Origin: an uncultured Acidimicrobiales bacterium | Lineage (GTDB): Bacteria > Actinomycetota > Acidimicrobiia > Acidimicrobiales > SHLQ01 | Length of the DNA: 49,885 nucleotides | Reading direction: 5' to 3' | Assembly: GCA_964445255.1 (NCBI GenBank) | Contig: CAYUKM010000001.1 | Location: 1 to 49,885 of the forward strand | In this document: positions 3,447 to 46,901 of the stretch, in pieces | Numbering within the stretch: position 1 is the stretch's first letter | Layout: each line of letters begins with the position of its first letter | Translations under genes and position numbers: made by a program | Notes under the pieces: model-generated | Database searches by the model: none | The model's input: the letters and a program-made list of their open reading frames with translations, nothing else | What the model was told of the DNA's origin: nothing

Positions 3447-4079
3447 CTATTGGTCAGCTTCGGCCATCTGTTGCTCGATTTGCTCGACGATGTCGACATA
3501 GGTTTCGAGCGGTTGAGCACCGTTGACGAGGTACTGGTTCTCGAAGACGACGGTCGGAATTCCGGTGATGTTCAGCGCCCGCGCGCTGTTGTATTCCTCG
3601 AAGACCAGCTCTTGCATGGCCTCGGCGCGAGTCGCAATGGCCTCGTTATAGGCAACAGCGTCGACGCCGACCTCGACAGCGAGCTCGGTAAGAACAGCCG
3701 GGTTGCTGATGTCTCGGTTGTCTCGGAAATACGCAGCCGTGACGAGATCGTAGTACGCCTTGGCCTTGTCAGGAGCTAGCTCCTCGAGAACCTTGTAGGC
3801 CACCTGCGCTTCGATGCTCGAGTGCGGCTGCGGGTCGTCGGTCACCCAAGGGGTGTACTCAAGCTCTGGCTCGAATTCTCTAGGGCGTAGCCAGCCCTGG
3901 GTGTAATTGATGAAATCTTCGCGTGCCCAATCACGTGGTCCGGTGCGGAGCAAGAATGCCTTCCGCGTAATCTCTACTCGATCTCCGAAGTGTTCTTTCA
4001 ATCTGTCGAGACGCACGGTCCCGATCCAGCACCACTCTCAAATGAAGTCGGAATAGAACGTTATTTGTACGGGTCGCAT
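3447..4079 (-). CDS. DsbA/FrnE-like thiol oxidoreductase with in-frame TGA at 4040..4038 (candidate selenocysteine, motif U-E-W-C)
   Basis: The track ORF 3447..4016 is DsbA-like (GIPTVVFENQYLVNGAQP) but lacks the CxxC motif. The same frame upstream reads ATG(4079) RPVQITFYSDFI TGA EWCWIGT. AGGAG lies 6 nt before ATG 4079. A hairpin starts 8 nt after the TGA. Confidence 0.65.
4003..4029 (-). promoter_or_regulatory. Candidate bacterial SECIS hairpin downstream of TGA 4040..4038
   Basis: mRNA CUG-(GA bulge)-UCGGGAC-[CGUGC]-GUCUCGA-CAG: 3 bp plus 7 bp (one G.U), pentaloop with GU at +25/+26 from the U of UGA. Confidence 0.45.
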
Positions 4080-4108: not shown

Positions 4109-4765
4109 TTAGTACAGCGTCTGCCGGTAGAAGGATTCCATATTGTCGTCGATGCGCTTCATCTCTTCGGGAGTAACGGGGCCACTGCCGGTGTGGTCGA
4201 GCATGACCTTGGCCATAGTTGGGAAGTCGCTGCGGTCCTGCTGCACGCTGGGGTCCCAGAGATTCGATCGGCGGAGCGCCTTAGCGCAGTGGATGTAAAC
4301 CTCGTCAACTTGCACCGCAATAGCGATCTTTGGGACACGACCTTTGATGTCCATCGTCTTGAGAAGGTCCGGATCTACTGTGAGCTGAGCGCCTCCGTTG
4401 ACGCGCATAGTTTCCTCAAAGCCTGGGATCAAGAAGATCAGCCCGACCCGAGGGTTCGTCACGATGTTTCTCAGCGTATCGATGCGGTTGTTGCCTGGCC
4501 GGTCAGGAATGAGCAGTGTCTTGTTGTCATCGAGGACCTTGACGAACCCAGGAGGGTCGCCCCGTGGAGTCACGTCGGCGTGGCCGTCGGCAGACTGGGA
4601 TCCAATCAGCATGAACGGCGAACGTTCGATGAAAACGCGAGCGTGTTCATGGATGTAATCCAGACACTTACTGGTGACAAATTCGTTGGCGGGGTGAAAT
4701 AACCGATCTAGGCCAGCAGCGTCGGAAACCAGGTATTCGGGATTGAGCTCGATGGGGTCTACCAT
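4109..4765 (-). CDS. PPOX-type FMN-binding split-barrel flavoprotein
   Basis: 218 aa. PFMLIGSQSADGHADVTPRGDPPGFV and NPRVGLIFLIPG..ETMRVNG are typical of the pyridoxamine 5'-phosphate oxidase-related family. Its stop lies 29 nt upstream of the DsbA-like gene start. Confidence 0.7.
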   Translation of the reverse strand: MVDPIELNPEYLVSDAAGLDRLFHPANEFVTSKCLDYIHEHARVFIERSPFMLIGSQSADGHADVTPRGDPPGFVKVLDDNKTLLIPDRPGNNRIDTLRNIVTNPRVGLIFLIPGFEETMRVNGGAQLTVDPDLLKTMDIKGRVPKIAIAVQVDEVYIHCAKALRRSNLWDPSVQQDRSDFPTMAKVMLDHTGSGPVTPEEMKRIDDNMESFYRQTLY

Positions 4766-14930: not shown

Positions 14931-16424
14931 ATGAGCGCAACCGACGTGAAAGATTCCGTAGCACCGGGAGAGCCGGAGCTTTCCTCTTCGTTTGCCGAGC
15001 GCTTTCCTGAGCTGGGCGCCGAGTCGAAGGCTATCGATGCCCCAGCGCCCGAGCCGGTCATCGTCAACGACGCCCTCGCGGAGTTTCTCGGCATCGACGT
15101 CGATTGGCTCAACAGCGACGACGGCACCGCGTTTCTCGCGGGTATCAAATTGCCCGCTGGTTCAGCCCCGATCGCCATGGCCTACGCCGGACATCAGTTC
15201 GGCGGGTACTCCCCTGTGCTCGGTGATGGCAGGGCCATTCTCATCGGCGAGGTCGCCGATGCAGACGGAGAGCTAGAAGACATTCATCTCAAAGGGTCCG
15301 GCCGCACGCCGTTCTCTCGCGGAGGCGACGGGCTAGCCACGTTGCCAGCCATGTTGCGCGAATACCTCATGGCCGAAGCCATGCACGCACTGGCGGTCCC
15401 AACCTCGCGGGGCCTCGGCGTAGTGACGACGGGCTTGGGTGTCCGGCGCGAGAAGATCGAAGCCGGAGCCGTGCTCGCACGAGTGGCACGCAGCCACATA
15501 CGTGTGGGGACGTTCGAGTTCACCGCACGACGAGACCCCGAGCTTGTGCGCGAGCTTGTCGACTATTCACTTGAACGCCACTACCCAGAGCTTGCCGATG
15601 CCGAAGTCCCAGCGCTTGCATTGCTCGAAGCTGTGGCCAACGCTCAGGCGAAGCTCATTGCGAAATGGATGCTCTTGGGCTTTGTGCACGGCGTCATGAA
15701 CACCGACAACGTGCTTATCTCCGGCGAGACCATCGATTACGGGCCATGTGCGTTCCTTGAGACCCACGACCCGGCGACCGTCTTTAGTTCAATCGATCGC
15801 CATGGTCGTTATGCATTCGGCAATCAGCCCGTGATTGGCCAGTGGAACCTTGCCCGCCTCGCCGAAACGCTGCTACCGCTGATCGATGACGATGGCGATG
15901 AAGCCGTAGCGAAGGCGACTATTGTCCTCGAGTCTTTCCCAGGACTCCTCAAAGAACATTGGCTCGAAGGCATGGCCTCCAAGATCGGACTCGTGGGACA
16001 GCACGACCAAGCCCTGGGTGCATTGGCCAGCGAATTGGTTGAAATGATGACCCGCTCCGAGGCAGACCACACTTTGACCTTCCGAGCGCTCGCCAAGGTG
16101 CTACGAGGCGAAACTCCATCCGACTTTGCACTCGCGTCCGACAGCGCCTGGGAGAACTGGTCACAACGTTGGCAAGATGCCCTGGGCGATGCGGACAAGA
16201 CCGAAGTCGCTGCGGCAATGGACGCCGTCAACCCGGTGTACATCCCGAGGAATCATCTGGTCGAAGAGGCGCTTAGCGCCGCCGGCGAGGGAAATTTGGA
16301 GCCGTTTCAGCAACTACTCGACGTCACGACGTCACCGTACGTCGAACGTGACGGGCTGGAACGCTACGGTGAACCCGCTCCAACCGGATTCACCGAGAGT
16401 TACCAGACCTTCTGCGGCACCTGA
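14931..16424 (+). CDS. selO: SelO/YdiU-family protein adenylyltransferase (Cys form)
   Basis: 497 aa with GHQFGGYSPVLGDGRAILIGE, HGVMNTDN and the C-terminal TFCGT. Confidence 0.85.
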   Translation: MSATDVKDSVAPGEPELSSSFAERFPELGAESKAIDAPAPEPVIVNDALAEFLGIDVDWLNSDDGTAFLAGIKLPAGSAPIAMAYAGHQFGGYSPVLGDGRAILIGEVADADGELEDIHLKGSGRTPFSRGGDGLATLPAMLREYLMAEAMHALAVPTSRGLGVVTTGLGVRREKIEAGAVLARVARSHIRVGTFEFTARRDPELVRELVDYSLERHYPELADAEVPALALLEAVANAQAKLIAKWMLLGFVHGVMNTDNVLISGETIDYGPCAFLETHDPATVFSSIDRHGRYAFGNQPVIGQWNLARLAETLLPLIDDDGDEAVAKATIVLESFPGLLKEHWLEGMASKIGLVGQHDQALGALASELVEMMTRSEADHTLTFRALAKVLRGETPSDFALASDSAWENWSQRWQDALGDADKTEVAAAMDAVNPVYIPRNHLVEEALSAAGEGNLEPFQQLLDVTTSPYVERDGLERYGEPAPTGFTESYQTFCGT

Positions 16425-16437
16425 GCCGACAAACAAG

Positions 16438-18426
<1,989 letters not shown>

Positions 18427-21047: not shown

Positions 21048-23003
21048 CTAGATGAGCAGCGAATCGGTCGTTACCTCGACAAGCGATGGCCCGCGATGTT
21101 GGAGTGCAGCGTCGAAGGTCGACTTGAGATCGCCCAGCTCGGTGACCCGGAAACCTTTCACCCCACAGAGCTCCGCCATGGCCGCAAAATCTGGGTTCAC
21201 TAAGTGTGTCTCCCACACCTCCCATTCGGCCGTCCGCTGTTCCTTGGAGATCTTGCCGAGCTCGTTGTTGTTCATCACGATGTGGGTGATATTCATGTCG
21301 TACTTTGCGAGCGTCGTCAGTTCCATGGCGTACTGGCCGAAGCCGCCATCACCGCTGATGCTGACCACCTGGCGATTATCGCCGACGGCGGCCCACGCTC
21401 CCATTGCCGCGGGAAGCGCAAAACCAATCGAGCCGAGGTAGCCCGACATCAGAACGTCTTGACCGGCCTTCGATTCGAAATAGCGTCCGAACGCATAGGT
21501 ATTGTTGCCAACATCGATTGCGATCACCGCGTCGTCGTCGACACCTTCAGCTAGGGCAGCCATCACTGCGGCCGAGTTGATTCCCTTACCGTGGTCGTCG
21601 AGTTCGCGTCGCGCTTTTTCTTTGTGCCAGATCGCCCAGCGTTCTGCAAGCTCATCGCGCATATCGATGCAACTCCGCTCGCTTGGGAGTCCAGCCAACA
21701 TTTCCTTTGCCGTAACGGCAACGTGGCCTTGCAGCGGAAGGTCGACCGGATGGAACCGACCGAGCGCCATTGGATCGGTGTCGACCTGAATGACTGGCTT
21801 GTACTCGGCGATGCCGGTGTGGTTGGAGAAGCTTGCACCGAACACGACAATCAAATCGGACTCGTTCATAAACCAGCTCGCAACCGGTGTTCCTGAACGT
21901 CCAAGAACACCGCAGCCGATCGGTTCGTCGTCGCCGATGATGCCCTTTGCCTTGAACGTCGTCGCGATCGGCGCACCGATCTCTTCGCCCAACGCCCGCA
22001 CTTCGTCCATGTGGCCACGGGCACCGTCGCCAACGATGATGAGCGGGCGCTCCGAGGCCGCGAGCATATCTATTGCCCGGTCGAGTTCTGACTTGGGTGG
22101 CGAAATCTCGTTCAGGCCGGTGCGCCCGTCGGGCTTGCCGGCTTCGGTGTCTTCGTCGACGGGAAGGAATTGGACTTCGTCGGGGAAGATCAGGTGCGCC
22201 ACCTTGTTCTCGACGATGGCGGTCTTCATGGCAAGCGTCGCCAGCTCGGCGTGATTTGATCCAGCGTGCACGGTCTCACTGAACGCGGCAACTGCCGCAA
22301 AGGCGGCTTCAAGATCGGTGTCTTGGAACGCACCGCGGCCCTTTACCTTCGACGGGACTTGCCCACTCAACGCAATCACCGGCGCACGATCTTCTTTGGC
22401 GTCGAAGAGACCGGTGAGAAGGTTCGTCGAGCCAGGACCCGCAATGCCAAAACAAGCCGCTGGGATTCCGGTTAGCTTGCCATAGGCCTTTGCCGCAAAA
22501 GAGGCAGCGCCTTCGTGGCGAATACCGATGAAGGTCAGTGCTCCCCTCTCTTCAGCCTTGCGCATGGCGTCGGCGAGCCCCAGATTTGAATGACCGACCA
22601 TGCCGAACACGTGGGTCATGCCCCAGTTCACCATGGTGTCGACCATCACATCGGACACCGTTCGTTCGAGGGGCGGTTCGGGGGGAAGTGCTACCCAAAC
22701 CTCGGTCTCGCGTACCTCGGTCGTGAAGCATGCGGGAGCGTCGGAGAACCCGCCCGGGGGCTTTCCGTCGATTGGTGAGTAGTCATACCCGTGCCATGGG
22801 CAGCGCAGCCAACCGTTTTCGATCGATCCCTCACCGAGCGGACCTCCCTGGTGTGGGCAGGCGTTGTCGACGCAGCCCCATTGGCCTTCGTATTTGCTCA
22901 CGGCGAAGGTTCGACGACCAATAGCCACGGTGGTCACTCGACCTTCGTCGAGTTCATCGGTTCCGATCAACCGATGCCACTCCAGCTCGTTGTTGTTGCT
23001 CAT
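21048..23003 (-). CDS. Rieske [2Fe-2S] domain fused to a pyruvate-oxidase/acetolactate-synthase-type TPP enzyme
   Basis: N-terminal CPHQGGPL...CPWHGYDY (CxH..CxxH). This is followed by TPP_N (VFGMVGHSNLGLADA), a middle domain, and TPP_C with GDGGFGQYAMELTTLAKYDMNITHIVMNNN. ATG 23003 is preceded by GGAG. Confidence 0.75.
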   Translation of the reverse strand: MSNNNELEWHRLIGTDELDEGRVTTVAIGRRTFAVSKYEGQWGCVDNACPHQGGPLGEGSIENGWLRCPWHGYDYSPIDGKPPGGFSDAPACFTTEVRETEVWVALPPEPPLERTVSDVMVDTMVNWGMTHVFGMVGHSNLGLADAMRKAEERGALTFIGIRHEGAASFAAKAYGKLTGIPAACFGIAGPGSTNLLTGLFDAKEDRAPVIALSGQVPSKVKGRGAFQDTDLEAAFAAVAAFSETVHAGSNHAELATLAMKTAIVENKVAHLIFPDEVQFLPVDEDTEAGKPDGRTGLNEISPPKSELDRAIDMLAASERPLIIVGDGARGHMDEVRALGEEIGAPIATTFKAKGIIGDDEPIGCGVLGRSGTPVASWFMNESDLIVVFGASFSNHTGIAEYKPVIQVDTDPMALGRFHPVDLPLQGHVAVTAKEMLAGLPSERSCIDMRDELAERWAIWHKEKARRELDDHGKGINSAAVMAALAEGVDDDAVIAIDVGNNTYAFGRYFESKAGQDVLMSGYLGSIGFALPAAMGAWAAVGDNRQVVSISGDGGFGQYAMELTTLAKYDMNITHIVMNNNELGKISKEQRTAEWEVWETHLVNPDFAAMAELCGVKGFRVTELGDLKSTFDAALQHRGPSLVEVTTDSLLI

Positions 23004-23169
23004 GTGCTCCCCTGAAGGCTCTCTAAATGCAGGTAACAGCATGGCACATACCGGTTGCGGAACCCGCCACGCGGACGCCACCGACGAAAACGGGTGTCTC
23101 GCTAACGTGATCGTTGAGCACACCGCATAGGATCCATTACTCGGAAACGAGGGAAACGAGAGATTTCAC

Positions 23170-26707: not shown

Positions 26708-28372
26708 CTACGCTCCGACGACCGAGTTGCAGTCAATGGCCTTCATGGCGGCCATGAGCTTTGCATTTTCGCTGTAGTCCACCGGCACGTCGATCACGTG
26801 CACCCCGCCAGCATCGGCTGCCTTTTGCAACGCGTCGGCGAGGCCTGCGGCACTATCGACTCGCGTACCGGTCGAACCAAACGCTGTGGCGTAGGAAATG
26901 ATGTCCGGGTTGGTGAACTCAACCCCGTGGACGGCGTTGCCCATCGCTTCCTGTTTGAGTTGGATCATTCCGAGCGCGCCATCGTTGAAGATCACCACGG
27001 TGAGGTCGAGCCCGAGGCGCACCGCGGTCTCGATCTCCTGGCCGGTCATCATGAAACCACCGTCGCCGACGACAGCGACGACGCGGCGGTCGGGATACAC
27101 CAGCTTGGCTGCGATCGCGGCGGGCACGCCCGTGCCCATCGACCCCAACGCCGAGTCAACCAGAATGGTTCGAGGTGCCAGCGCCGGATAGTTGCGGGTC
27201 ATCCACAACTTATGGATGCCATTGTCCAAACTGATGATGTCTTCAGGACCGAGCGCCTTGCGCACGGTCTGCGCGACGTGCTGTGGCTTGACGATCCCGG
27301 GAGTTGGATCGGTGGGCTCCGCCATCATCGCGCCAACCGCGGCTTTCCGCAGCTTGGCGTAACCGTCGAGCTCCCACGATGCCGCCCCGCTGACGCGCTC
27401 GGTGAGCTCGATCAGAGAGTGCGCCATATCGCCGACCACCTGGTGCTGGGGGAACCAGATCGTGTCCGCGGTGGCGGGTGAGTCATGAATGTGGATCACC
27501 GTTCGAGCGTCGTCGGGCTTCATGATGAACGGCGATTTTTCGATCACGTTATGACCCACGCTCACCACAAGGTCGCTGTGTTGCACCGCGCAATGCGGGA
27601 TCCCCATTCCGGGCATTCCCGCGGAACCCAAGAACTGGTCGCTCATCTCGTCGCCGACACCCTTGCCCATCATCGTGCAAATGAAGGGGATACCGGTTGC
27701 GGACAGAAAGTTCCGCACCGCCGCTGGCACGGCTTGGCGAGCGTTCGCGCTGGCGCCAAGGAGCACCAATGGCCGCTTGGCTTCTTGCAACAGGGTTGCT
27801 GCCGTGGCCATCGATGCCTCCGTCGCCAGTGCCGGGTCAGCTCGACCGATCTCGAGCAACGGGTGGATTCCCGCTGGTTCGCCAGACACATCCACCGGCA
27901 ATTCGAGATGTACCGGACCTTGCGGATACTCGAGCGCGACGTGGATTGCTTCTGCGATCAGGCCTGGGAGCGCCGCGGCCGATGGGACCGACGCCGACAT
28001 CTTCGTGATGGGCGTCATGAGGTCGACGACATCGACCAGCTGATACTTGCCCTGCATATTGTCGAGAATTGGCTTTTGGCCCGTGAGCACCAACATCGGC
28101 GACTCGGCCAACCAGGCGTGAGCAACCGGCGTCGCCAGATTGGTAGCCCCCGCCCCGAGCGTCGACATGGCAACGGCGAGCCCGCCCGTGAGGTGGCCAT
28201 GGGCCGCAGCCATGAAACCGGCTGCGCCTTCGTGGCGGGTCAAAACGAAGCTCACCTGGTCGGAGTTCGCTACCGCTTCAACGAAGGGAAGGTTCTCATC
28301 ACCGGGCAGACCAAAGACGTACGAGACTCCCTCTTTTTCGAGGGCTTCGAGTAACTGCTGTGCTGTATTCAT
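26708..28372 (-). CDS. Acetolactate-synthase-like TPP-dependent enzyme
   Basis: N-terminal VSYVFGLPGDENLPF, and GDGGFMMTGQEIETAVRLGLDLTVVIFNDG (GDG..N TPP motif). The likely start ATG 28372 (MNTAQQLL) lies 4 nt after the RraA stop. Confidence 0.8.
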   Translation of the reverse strand: MNTAQQLLEALEKEGVSYVFGLPGDENLPFVEAVANSDQVSFVLTRHEGAAGFMAAAHGHLTGGLAVAMSTLGAGATNLATPVAHAWLAESPMLVLTGQKPILDNMQGKYQLVDVVDLMTPITKMSASVPSAAALPGLIAEAIHVALEYPQGPVHLELPVDVSGEPAGIHPLLEIGRADPALATEASMATAATLLQEAKRPLVLLGASANARQAVPAAVRNFLSATGIPFICTMMGKGVGDEMSDQFLGSAGMPGMGIPHCAVQHSDLVVSVGHNVIEKSPFIMKPDDARTVIHIHDSPATADTIWFPQHQVVGDMAHSLIELTERVSGAASWELDGYAKLRKAAVGAMMAEPTDPTPGIVKPQHVAQTVRKALGPEDIISLDNGIHKLWMTRNYPALAPRTILVDSALGSMGTGVPAAIAAKLVYPDRRVVAVVGDGGFMMTGQEIETAVRLGLDLTVVIFNDGALGMIQLKQEAMGNAVHGVEFTNPDIISYATAFGSTGTRVDSAAGLADALQKAADAGGVHVIDVPVDYSENAKLMAAMKAIDCNSVVGA

Positions 28373-28376
28373 CGGC

Positions 28377-29045
28377 TCAGATCTCCTGGCTTCCACTAAC
28401 AATGACCTCGCCGGGGTCCTCGGCTCGAATCTTCTCGAGCATCTGATGACCCATCTCTTTGATCATCCGAGCGGTCTGGAGGATCTCGTCGGCATTTGAT
28501 GCTGGGATGACCGCGGCACCCGTCGTGTCAGCGAAGATGATGTCGCCGGGAACGACCGTCACCCCGGCGACCTCGACGGGAACATCGGTGACGTAGGGCT
28601 GAATTTCGTTTCCGCCAGCGCGGACCGCTTCACCTCGACAGTAAAAGGCACCCGGAAACTCGGCGAGTTCATCGAAGTCACGCAGTCGACCGTCACACAG
28701 GACTCCAGCGAGGCCGTGGTTGGTGACCCGGGACAGCTTCGTCGACCCACCCAGCGATGCTCCATGGTGACCAGAGGACGACATGACCAAGACTCGGCCC
28801 CCCATCTCGCGCTCACCGAGCGAACGATAGATCGCTGGCCCGAGGCTGTGTTTGTGAAGATCCATCAGGTCGCGGCGCACCGGCAAGAAACCAATGGTCA
28901 CCGCAGGCCCAAACAACACTTTGGATGGGTCCGGAGAAACTAAATCAACGATGTGAGACCGGTGGGCGAACGCCTTGGTCATCGCGTCGATGATGTCGGC
29001 AGTCGCGAGCCCTTCGATAAGGGCTCGGTCTGGTGTCTCGTACAT
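28377..29045 (-). CDS. RraA-family protein (HMG/CHA-aldolase / oxaloacetate decarboxylase-like)
   Basis: GRVLVMSSSGHHGASLGGSTKLSRVTNHGLAGVLCDGRLRD is the RraA-like core. ATG 29045 is preceded by GGGAGA. Confidence 0.65.
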   Translation of the reverse strand: MYETPDRALIEGLATADIIDAMTKAFAHRSHIVDLVSPDPSKVLFGPAVTIGFLPVRRDLMDLHKHSLGPAIYRSLGEREMGGRVLVMSSSGHHGASLGGSTKLSRVTNHGLAGVLCDGRLRDFDELAEFPGAFYCRGEAVRAGGNEIQPYVTDVPVEVAGVTVVPGDIIFADTTGAAVIPASNADEILQTARMIKEMGHQMLEKIRAEDPGEVIVSGSQEI

Positions 29046-45154: not shown

Positions 45155-45811
45155 CTATTGGTTTGTCAACAGTTCCGGAAAGAGCCGCTTGGTCGTCTTG
45201 ACCTTTGAACGACGAGCACGTTTGCGCTTGAGCTCGTAAAAGTCGGGGCCTGTCGCGATGGTGTGGAGGCTGTCCCAGATCTCGAGACCTCGCTCTGGGG
45301 TTGGCATGCGACGCAGTACCGGGCCGAAATACCCGACACGCTCGCCGTCGGTCGTATCAAAGATGATCAACGGCACGCCAATGTCGTCACCAGCGATCTC
45401 GATGGCGTCCTCAAGGTGCTGTTGCAACGCTTGATCGTGCTCGACGTTGTCCAACTCGGCAAGGTAACGAGAGGGTAGGTTCATACGCTCCAGAACTGCG
45501 GCGTAGAAGGTCTCGTCGTCGAGCTTGGGATCGATGAAATACGCCTTGCCAAATTGGGTGAAGAGCTCTCCCCGATCGATCCCTTCAGCGTGATGTATTG
45601 CTTCCACGATCCGAAGCACCCTGTGCGCGATCGTGTGGGTGTCGAGGTGCCCGGTAACGTCTTGGCCACCAAGCTCACCATTCTTCAACGCAAGGCTGAA
45701 CGGTAACCAGTCGATATCTATCTCTCGCTCCTGTTGCACTTCGGTAAGCCATCGGCTTGTGATCCAGCACCATGGGCAACTCGGGTCGTAGTAGAAGGAA
45801 ATGCGTGTCAT
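45155..45811 (-). CDS. DsbA-family oxidoreductase, Rv2466c-like (mycothiol-dependent reductase type), Cys form CPWC
   Basis: ISFYYDPSCPWCWITSRW, YFGPVLRRMP and PDFYELKRKR closely recall the mycobacterial Rv2466c family. Confidence 0.75.
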   Translation of the reverse strand: MTRISFYYDPSCPWCWITSRWLTEVQQEREIDIDWLPFSLALKNGELGGQDVTGHLDTHTIAHRVLRIVEAIHHAEGIDRGELFTQFGKAYFIDPKLDDETFYAAVLERMNLPSRYLAELDNVEHDQALQQHLEDAIEIAGDDIGVPLIIFDTTDGERVGYFGPVLRRMPTPERGLEIWDSLHTIATGPDFYELKRKRARRSKVKTTKRLFPELLTNQ

Positions 45812-45868: not shown

Positions 45869-45909
45869 TCAGTTGATCTAGTGATCGGTGTTGGTAAGGA
45901 ATCTAGTGA
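45869..45909 (-). promoter_or_regulatory. Conserved ~40-nt element, copy B (TCAGTTGATCTAGTGA plus ATCTAGTGA 25 nt away)
   Basis: Near-identical to 33212..33252. It begins 57 nt upstream of the Rv2466c-like start and overlaps the stop codon (45903..45905) of the AhpD-like gene. Confidence 0.5.
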
Positions 45910-46901
45910 CGGCCGGTGAAGGCAGGAATCCCCAGTTCGGTCGTGATAGCACCCATACTGACCGGGACCGGTACACCGGTGGCGTCAAGAATACGGTTCA
46001 TCATCTCGAAGTTGCCAATGACCAATGCAGCGCGTGCGGCACCGTCAACACCAGCGACGTCTTGGAGCTCTTGACGGGTCCTGGCAATGGCATCAGCATT
46101 GCCCTCATAGATTGCATCAGCAAAGGCGAGGAGCTGGCTTCCCGTAGGCAGGTTCGGGTCGAGCTGGCTATCGCCGACCGCCTTGAGGTTGAGGTTTGCG
46201 TTGTTCATGTGGGCGCTCGCACGGAGCATTCCTGAATGAGCAAACAGTCAAAAATAGCAATCGTTGAGTAGCGACGTTCGCGCAGCCAACAGTTCCATTT
46301 GGGTGCGGTCGAGCCCTTTGTTGATCCCGTAGCTACCCATCTCGGCGTAGCTCAGGTACAGAGCCCCATGGAGTTGCTCTTGCGCTAGATCTTCAGCTGG
46401 CACAGCAGACAGCGCTGAAGTCGCGCCGGCACCGCCAACCATCGGCACCCACGCCGAGCGCCGCTTTGCGCCGGGTACGACCGTGTTGTGTGCCTCGCCT
46501 GGGATCGCGTCAGGGTAGGGTTCGAGACGGTTGCCGAGCCCAACGGTCGCGGTGTCGATTGCTGTCGTTCGAGAAATGACGCCGACGAGCTCAACATAGT
46601 GCAGCGGGCTGAGTCCATCGGCGACGAAACCTTCAACCATGACCTTGGTGATACTGCCAGCGTCGGTGGCAACAAGCACTGCCGCACGGCGATCGACGTC
46701 GTTCAGCGAGCTCGCTTCGGGTTCGGGGAGGTCTCGCCGGGCAGCCCTGCCGACGTGGGCAATATCGATGCGTTGTTGACCCGTCCACCATGCGCCCGGC
46801 TCGGCCAGTTGTTCCCACTGCTGGGTTAAGACAGCCCGGGTGCGTTCGGGTATAGGCAAGCTTTGCGGTGTAGAGGGTGCGAAGGGTTGAACGTCAGTCA
46901 T
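45903..46901 (-). CDS. AhpD/carboxymuconolactone-decarboxylase-like protein with in-frame TGA at 46250..46248 (candidate selenocysteine, E-x11-C-x2-U-x3-H)
   Basis: Track ORFs 46248..46901 and 45903..46229 are in the same frame, separated only by TGA plus 6 codons. The joined sequence reads ...MELLAARTSLLNDCYF-TGA-LFAHSGMLRAS.... A hairpin lies downstream. Confidence 0.7.
46212..46232 (-). promoter_or_regulatory. Candidate bacterial SECIS hairpin downstream of TGA 46250..46248
   Basis: mRNA GG-(AA bulge)-UGCUC-[CGUGC]-GAGCG-CC, with loop GU at +29/+30 from the U of UGA. The apical CCGUGCG is the same as in the DsbA-like gene. Confidence 0.45.

Follow-up and report, generated by a model that had tools for sequence, protein, structure and literature searches.

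In Escherichia coli, the selenocysteine insertion sequence (SECIS) of fdhF exposes a G-U at +23/24 after the UGA in a GGUC tetraloop and additionally features a bulged U17. Beyond this single element, Zhang and Gladyshev's general model of bacterial SECIS (bSECIS) describes a loop of 3-9 nt with a G within its first two positions followed by G or U, an upper stem of 4-16 bp, a distance of 16-37 nt between UGA and loop, and a minimum free energy that does not exceed -7.5 kcal/mol (summarised in PMC13188914). As for the encoded proteins, DsbA-like UxxC and AhpD-like CxxU selenoproteins have been known since the Sargasso Sea analysis of marine metagenomes, and in all new selenoproteins reported there the TGA is followed by stem-loops similar to bacterial SECIS (PMC1088965).

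The window considered here, i.e. the entire analysed stretch of 49,885 nucleotides from an uncultured member of the Acidimicrobiales, comprises two genes of this type, termed gene 1 (DsbA-like) and gene 2 (AhpD-related), in each of which an in-frame UGA is followed by a hairpin with the same apical sequence (Table 1). Both hairpins are very probably SECIS, because the TGA is retained in relatives of either gene, the stem is lost in forms that carry Cys instead, and synonymous codons across the hairpins are near-frozen. The two selenoprotein families as such are already known, and the hairpins are SECIS of the ordinary kind. What the comparison with relatives contributes is a description of the SECIS core, tested family-wide, for two widespread marine selenoprotein families, while the bulge, the lower stem and the exact heptamer of a model derived from the single sequence do not generalise.

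Table 1. Predicted selenoprotein genes, Sec codons and very probable SECIS cores (positions in the window unless preceded by a contig handle)
Feature	Position	Strand	Details
DsbA-like selenoprotein gene (gene 1)	3447..4079	minus	210 codons, ATG 4079, stop at 3447; active site U14-E-W-C17
Sec codon UGA, gene 1	4040..4038	minus	in frame, codon 14
SECIS 1 core	4006..4024	minus	7-bp stem (+17..+23 / +29..+35), loop CGUGC at 4017..4013
AhpD-related (CMD-fold) selenoprotein gene (gene 2)	45903..46901	minus	332 codons, ATG 46901, stop at 45903
Sec codon UGA, gene 2	46250..46248	minus	in frame, codon 218
SECIS 2 core	46214..46228	minus	5-bp stem (+23..+27 / +33..+37, one U.G), loop CGUGC at 46223..46219
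SelL-related AhpC/TSA genes	L049:7022-7546, L062:6954-7505, L007:3322-3882, L064:10734-11258		motif H-R-H-L-x-U-L-P-C

When read through its TGA, gene 1, whose start codon is preceded by an AGGAG 7 nt upstream, yields a DSBA-like thioredoxin-fold product with the active site F-Y-S-D-F-I-U-E-W-C. Pfam DSBA (PF01323) matches residues 5-196 with 81.7 bits, and the DSBA fold in conjunction with Sec at the leading position of the CxxC motif places the product among the DsbA-like UxxC selenoproteins. It departs from its DsbA-like relatives by U-E-W-C, where these have U-P-W-C; the CPWC of Cys homologues is aligned to the same UEWC. No dedicated NCBIfam model was matched by gene 1, which was hit by the generic DSBA model and, weakly, by Rcas_1661 only. 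For the family at large, 80 metagenomic loci were fetched and the codon at the Sec position was readable in 77, being TGA in 64, TGT in 8 and TGC in 5, and among the close relatives of gene 1 TGA is found in 20 of 20 contig loci. In public protein sets, relatives of gene 1 are represented almost exclusively by 189-aa products beginning just after the TGA. These DsbA-like members are called from a GTG inside the SECIS loop, which deprives them of the UxxC active site, and the rare full-length relatives have Cys at the Sec position (CPWC).

The genomic surroundings of gene 1 are partly conserved. It adjoins a PNPOx_N gene (pyridoxamine-phosphate-oxidase-like, FMN-binding; window 4109-4765, minus strand), which also resides beside the DsbA-like gene in all relatives of at least about 65% identity (L161-L180). 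The order varies, PNPOx_N being located upstream in the window and downstream elsewhere, and this association suggests that the PNPOx_N gene and the DsbA-like selenoprotein gene may form a conserved functional pair. Further genes situated between the two selenoprotein genes encode a SelO-family protein adenylyltransferase (window 14931-16424, plus strand) and a Thioredox_DsbH (DUF255) protein (window 16438-18426, minus strand), and no in-frame TGA extension is evident. The same neighbourhood (SelO, DsbH-like, DUF1684 and P-type ATPase) encloses the DsbA-like selenoprotein gene of contig L181. Near a gene 1 homologue, a molybdopterin enzyme was considered as an FdhA selenoprotein and discarded, as no in-frame TGA split was seen; it is probably an assimilatory nitrate reductase, because its neighbours are nitrite reductase genes.

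Gene 2 encodes the motif C215-Y-F-U218-x-x-x-H in the context N-D-C-Y-F-U-L-F-A-H. The NCBIfam model NF041238 (AhpD_rel_CFYUT, alkylhydroperoxidase-related (seleno)protein) matches residues 18-324 with 233.5 bits, the cut-off being 175, and both this score and the Sec/Cys at the CxxU/C motif assign the product to that family. The redox motifs and Sec positions of genes 1 and 2 are the same as in the families of PMC1088965 and in NF041238. Among 80 genomic loci of gene 2 relatives, nearly all of them from Acidimicrobiia MAGs, the Sec position is occupied by TGA in 77 cases, by TGC in one and by TAG in two, and tblastn matches run on through the TGA to residue ~325-332. In the public protein sets, these relatives occur almost only with ~205-217 aa, ending exactly at the TGA (...N-x-C-[FY]-[FY]); stopped at the Sec codon, the AhpD-related members lose ~114 residues. 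A full-length Cys form (P0049) exhibits NACFYC in alignment with NDCYFU, and the TGC of locus L078 likewise aligns with the Sec position of this motif. The annotation of two genes is corrected in this way: public sources truncate both, at the expense of the active site in gene 1 and of the C-terminal third in gene 2.

The exceptional codons of the AhpD-related family deserve a separate account. In its single Cys (TGC) member (L078, 1016-1063) the hairpin is still intact as GCUC-CGGGC-GAGC, which suggests a recent conversion from Sec to Cys. Both TAG forms stem from Geodermatophilaceae, namely Modestobacter sp. DSM 44400 and Geodermatophilus chilensis (L032:6604-6606, L051:6604-6606), and in both the downstream hairpin GCUC-CGGGU-GAGC is kept and coding continues. 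According to the part of PMC5330540 consulted here, which cites Mukai et al. 2016, Geodermatophilaceae decode UAG as Sec with tRNASec(CUA). The TAG at the Sec position fits this known tRNA, in that codon and tRNA would have changed together and the hairpin would have been retained. The Geodermatophilaceae selenoproteins named in that part of the article are FDH, the UGSC-motif protein and AhpC, and the AhpD-related family is not among these.

With regard to the RNA, the earlier note on this DNA had specified base pairs, loops and coordinates for both hairpins, all of which are literally present, including the C-CGUGC-G tip shared by the two genes. Counted from the U of the UGA, the hairpin of gene 1 begins 16 nt downstream and consists of the pairs U17-A35, C18-G34, G19-C33, G20.U32, G21-C31, A22-U30 and C23-G29, which enclose the loop C24-G25-U26-G27-C28 with its G-U at +25/26, at a spacing of 20 nt between UGA and loop. 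Optional pairs of C12-U13-G14 with C36-A37-G38, which leave G15-A16 unpaired, extend it to 4029..4003. Across 61 distinct TGA-containing forms, the core stem is paired to 93.4%, a score reached by none of 500 shuffles, and slid controls attain 31-44%. Two positions display compensatory changes: pair 21-31 is G-C in 44 forms, C-G in 13 and U-A in 2, and pair 22-30 is A-U in 33, G-U in 11, G-C in 9 and U-A in 2. Moreover, RNAalifold recovers the same core stem unaided from the gene 1 family.

The same stem goes together with the UGA. Forms with TGA keep 6.5 of the 7 pairs on average and Cys forms 2.9, and the mean core energy amounts to -9.7 kcal/mol in the former versus -4.4 kcal/mol in the latter; the bare hairpin of gene 1 itself has -9.3 kcal/mol. 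Inside the hairpin, codon choice deviates strongly from the background of the family, with Gly GGG at 0.72 versus 0.17, Arg CGT at 0.72 versus 0.13 and Leu CTC at 0.80 versus 0.32. Compensatory changes, for instance that of GGG/CUC to GGC/GUC, link a silent position to one that alters the amino acid. The loop G and U are invariant in 61 of 61 relatives, and the closing C-G pair is found in 59 of them. The G-U of this loop could be driven by the protein, because it starts a Val codon that is conserved in Cys forms too, and an Arg codon determines both the fifth loop nucleotide and the G of the closing pair.

A few distant TGA-containing DsbA-like members (L135, L137, L146, L147 and L157; ~48 nt after the TGA) do not show the family hairpin in register, with 1-4 of 7 pairs. 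Two of them, L146 and L147, have an apparent shifted and shorter hairpin, GCCG-AGGUA-CGGC, and such off-register hairpins may represent a different SECIS solution.

In gene 2, the hairpin begins 22 nt after the U of the UGA and is composed of U23.G37, G24-C36, C25-G35, U26-A34 and C27-G33 around the loop C28-G29-U30-G31-C32, so that the spacing to the loop is 24 nt and the G-U lies at +29/30. The outer pairs G19-G20/C38-C39, with A21-A22 unpaired, enlarge the hairpin to 46232..46212. Across 77 distinct forms, pairing of the 5-bp stem amounts to 96.9%, but its sequence hardly varies, and therefore covariation is minimal: a single family member (L060) has a fully compensated stem, UUCUC/GGGAA, and RNAalifold predicted no structure for the gene 2 family. 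Hence, the case for the second SECIS is mainly one of synonymous-site conservation, and covariation is strong for gene 1 only. Leu is encoded by CTC in 77 of 77 forms (background 0.42), Ala by GCG in 45 of 45 (0.30), Arg by CGT in 59 of 65 (0.91; background 0.12) and Ser by AGC in 67 of 73 (0.92; background 0.20), while the codons flanking both hairpins are at background. The raised synonymous-site conservation that the earlier note had proposed to look for is accordingly observed across both hairpins. The amino acids encoded by the loop vary between R-A, S-W, R-E, R-V and R-W, whereas G29 is kept in 77 of 77 relatives, U30 in 71 and the closing C-G pair in all 77, a pattern from which it appears that the RNA constrains the protein here and not the reverse.

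Set against the bSECIS model, the two elements agree in forming a stem-loop directly 3' of an in-frame UGA within the coding region at a position where Sec is paired with Cys in homologues, in a 5-nt loop with G at position 2 followed by U, and in stems of 7 and 5 bp at spacings of 20 and 24 nt. As the model also implies, the structure is conserved in Sec-encoding orthologues beyond what coding needs would dictate and is relaxed in Cys forms. Two differences exist. On the one hand, the core of gene 2 alone, with -4.8 kcal/mol, misses the threshold of -7.5 kcal/mol unless weak outer pairs are counted, as in the 51-nt fold that reaches -9.6 kcal/mol by adding them. On the other hand, loop positions 1 and 5 are both C here and cannot pair, whereas a pair between N1 and N2 is common in the model.

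The SECIS of E. coli fdhF shares with both hairpins an apical-loop G-U at a similar distance from the UGA, but presents it in a GGUC tetraloop instead of the 5-nt CGUGC loop. A conserved bulged nucleotide corresponding to U17 was sought in both families and has no counterpart in either. Judged by conservation, the functional element seems to be the core stem-loop, characterised by a 5-nt N-G-U-N-N loop, a C-G closure and a stem of at least 5 bp, and the purine "bulge" and the lower stems would be no part of the SECIS.

By analogy with the SelB-SECIS systems of E. coli and Moorella, SelB would bind and Sec would be inserted at both UGAs. As the ribosome nears the in-frame UGA, the C-terminal domain of SelB would bind the small apical loop of the hairpin 20-24 nt downstream, its key contacts presumably being the G and U at loop positions 2-3 in a loop closed by a C-G pair. 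SelB, carrying Sec-tRNA(Sec), would thus cause the UGA to be read as selenocysteine instead of as a stop. The predicted products are a DsbA-like thiol-disulfide oxidoreductase (U-x-x-C) and an AhpD-related protein (C-x-x-U-x-x-x-H). On the same analogy, the window organism, a relative within the Acidimicrobiales, is expected to decode selenocysteine. A tRNA scan of the 50-kb window found no tRNA-Sec, and Pfam annotation of ~40 window genes revealed no selA, selB, selD or other selenium-utilisation genes, so that the Sec machinery of the organism is assumed rather than seen.

Recurrence of the CGUGC tip beyond the two genes became apparent from 1.4 Mb of flanking DNA of relatives, after filtering for places where a coding-like in-frame TGA precedes a hairpin with an N-G-U-N-N loop and a stem of 5 bp or more. 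The filter yielded a third, unrelated family on four contigs, SelL-related AhpC/TSA proteins with U-L-P-C, as well as a SelW/T/H gene with the tip C-CGUGA-G and a CMD-like gene with the loop AGUUU. The SelL-related hairpins have uninterrupted stems of 7-8 bp, tipped by C-CGUGC-G in three cases and by C-CGUGA-G in one; the SelL-related gene scored 119.1 bits on NF040769, just below the cut-off of 120. About five unexplained cases were left over among ~700 other candidates, and matches of TGA plus hairpin in a GNAT gene (L063), a membrane-protein gene (L026) and elsewhere were judged probable false positives. Clustering of all in-frame-TGA peptides from the 1.4 Mb of flanks was swamped by antisense and off-frame artefacts and regained only the families already obtained with the hairpin filter.

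In L049 and L062, the AhpD-related gene has the SelL-related gene directly downstream of it; in L007 and L064, the two are no more than a few kb apart. In the window, the neighbour of gene 2 at the place where relatives have the SelL-related gene is an Rv2466c-like DsbA with Cys (45155-45811, minus strand).

The foremost alternative to an ordinary SECIS holds that the SelB of this lineage reads an extended motif, made up of the heptamer C-CGUGC-G and two bulged purines on the 5' side, beneath a stem whose first base is U. The heptamer part of this proposal draws on the identical tip that recurs in Acidimicrobiia contigs among the hairpins of three unrelated families, on the prevalence of CGUGC in the DsbA-like (29 of 61) and AhpD-related (43 of 77) loops, on the near-constant C-G closure in both and on the contigs with two selenoprotein genes, four of five of which (the window, L007, L062 and L064) have CGUGC in both loops. 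Nevertheless, loops vary within the same families and the same class: the DsbA-like family also uses GGUCC (13), GGUUC (7) and others, the AhpD-related family CGUGA (11), AGUUG (10) and others, and AGUUU and CGGGC occur as well; in gene 1, furthermore, part of the tip is set by the Arg codon noted above.

The earlier note had regarded the 2-purine bulge and an upper stem beginning with U as shared features; the bulge is present in the window and conserved in neither family, and the initial U is likewise not supported as a shared recognition feature. Nearly all gene 1 relatives have G at position 16, as part of a Val GUC codon, and this G16 pairs with C36 to give a continuous 8-bp stem, AUC at this codon being confined to the window and its 92%-identical relatives. 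Positions 21-22 of gene 2 read GA, CA, TG or CG in relatives, and the purine bulges are apparently specific to the window or its subclade. As for the lower helices, that of gene 1 is 63.9% paired, not exceeding controls, with pair 14-36 broken in 37 of 61 forms, and that of gene 2 is 60.4% paired versus 56.8% in shuffles and is outscored by a control slid by +1. Adding to this the uninterrupted SelL-related stems, we consider an extended motif unlikely.

A covariance model of the gene 1 family likewise speaks against a common extended motif: it recognises gene 1 at 27 bits, and the gene 2 hairpin is absent among its 72 matches with E-values up to 10. Therefore, scanning a genome naively with the model of one family would fail, and the earlier proposal to find further selenoprotein genes by means of the motif is borne out in another form, namely in combination with in-frame TGA and coding context, by which the SelL-related, SelW/T/H and CMD-like genes were recovered. 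The idea of a lineage-specific consensus was similarly overstated, as the invariant features, a small loop with G-U at positions 2-3 located 20-24 nt after the UGA, are those of the general bacterial model (PMC13188914), and CGUGC is only the commonest loop.

Within the ordinary SECIS, this clade may plausibly prefer C-CGUG[C/A]-G, because the tip recurs in a third family and in the SelW/T/H gene. It is conceivable, albeit doubtful, that the SelB of Acidimicrobiia favours a 5-nt C-G-U-G-C/A loop closed by C-G, which would be a narrower specificity than one for G-U in any small loop. If so, at least three unrelated families (DsbA-like, AhpD-related and SelL-related) would have converged on one tip, a clade-specific tip would permit selenoproteome prediction of high specificity in a poorly cultured marine group, and a case of SelB-SECIS co-evolution would be at hand. 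For the time being, the same loop in three unrelated families provides a small lead on SelB specificity.

A second alternative regards heptamer and hairpins as a by-product of protein-coding constraint and GC-rich codon usage, the real recoding signal, if any, being located elsewhere. It finds its footing in the single-sequence tests. Folding z-scores versus shuffles are +0.03 (gene 1) and +0.11 (gene 2) for 51-nt segments, and the bare hairpins give -1.1 and -0.34, respectively; in gene 1, the minimum-energy structure of the 51 nt differs from SECIS 1; and when the same peptides were recoded synonymously 3000 times, the native folding energy proved ordinary, with a z of about +0.4. The absence of stable structure relative to shuffled controls had been named beforehand as evidence against SECIS, and formally this is the outcome, because neither hairpin folds better than dinucleotide shuffles; stability relative to shuffles is ill-suited to judging hairpins of 15-20 nt in coding DNA of high GC content. 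Rfam at gathering thresholds matched no family. However, a hairpin with an N-G-U-N-N loop and the observed stem length arises in only 2.5% (gene 1) and 2.4% (gene 2) of the recodings. CCGTGCG is not frequent: counting both strands, the window has 7 copies as opposed to 18.2 expected from dinucleotide shuffles, and only 2 of the 7 combine complementary arms with an in-frame TGA 22-26 nt upstream.

The conservation of Val-Arg in gene 1, which extends to Cys forms, and the scarce covariation in gene 2 would also accord with mere coding constraint. Yet codons that are rare in these genes (CGT 12-13%, GGG 17%, AGC 20%) approach fixation solely within the hairpin, the pairing is lost in Cys forms of similar peptide sequence, the G-U persists through replacements of the loop amino acids, and the compensatory change from GGG/CUC to GGC/GUC joins a synonymous to a replacement site, all of which renders a by-product very improbable.

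Lastly, that the UGAs are genuine stops, pseudogene lesions or codons reassigned to a standard amino acid, with the hairpins irrelevant, is barely credible in spite of gene callers splitting or truncating both genes in all public sources, given that relatives keep TGA at the exact catalytic position with conserved coding on both sides, Cys substitutes in some homologues, NCBIfam curates the gene 2 family as a (seleno)protein, and global reassignment is contradicted by the many ordinary window genes that end in TGA.

Apart from selenoproteins, the window harbours a 691-aa ORF (21048-23123, minus strand) in which a Rieske [2Fe-2S] domain at the N-terminus is joined to a complete thiamine-pyrophosphate (TPP) enzyme (TPP_enzyme_N/M/C), in addition to a second, ordinary TPP enzyme at 26708-28402. 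The fusion of a Rieske domain to a TPP enzyme looks unusual.
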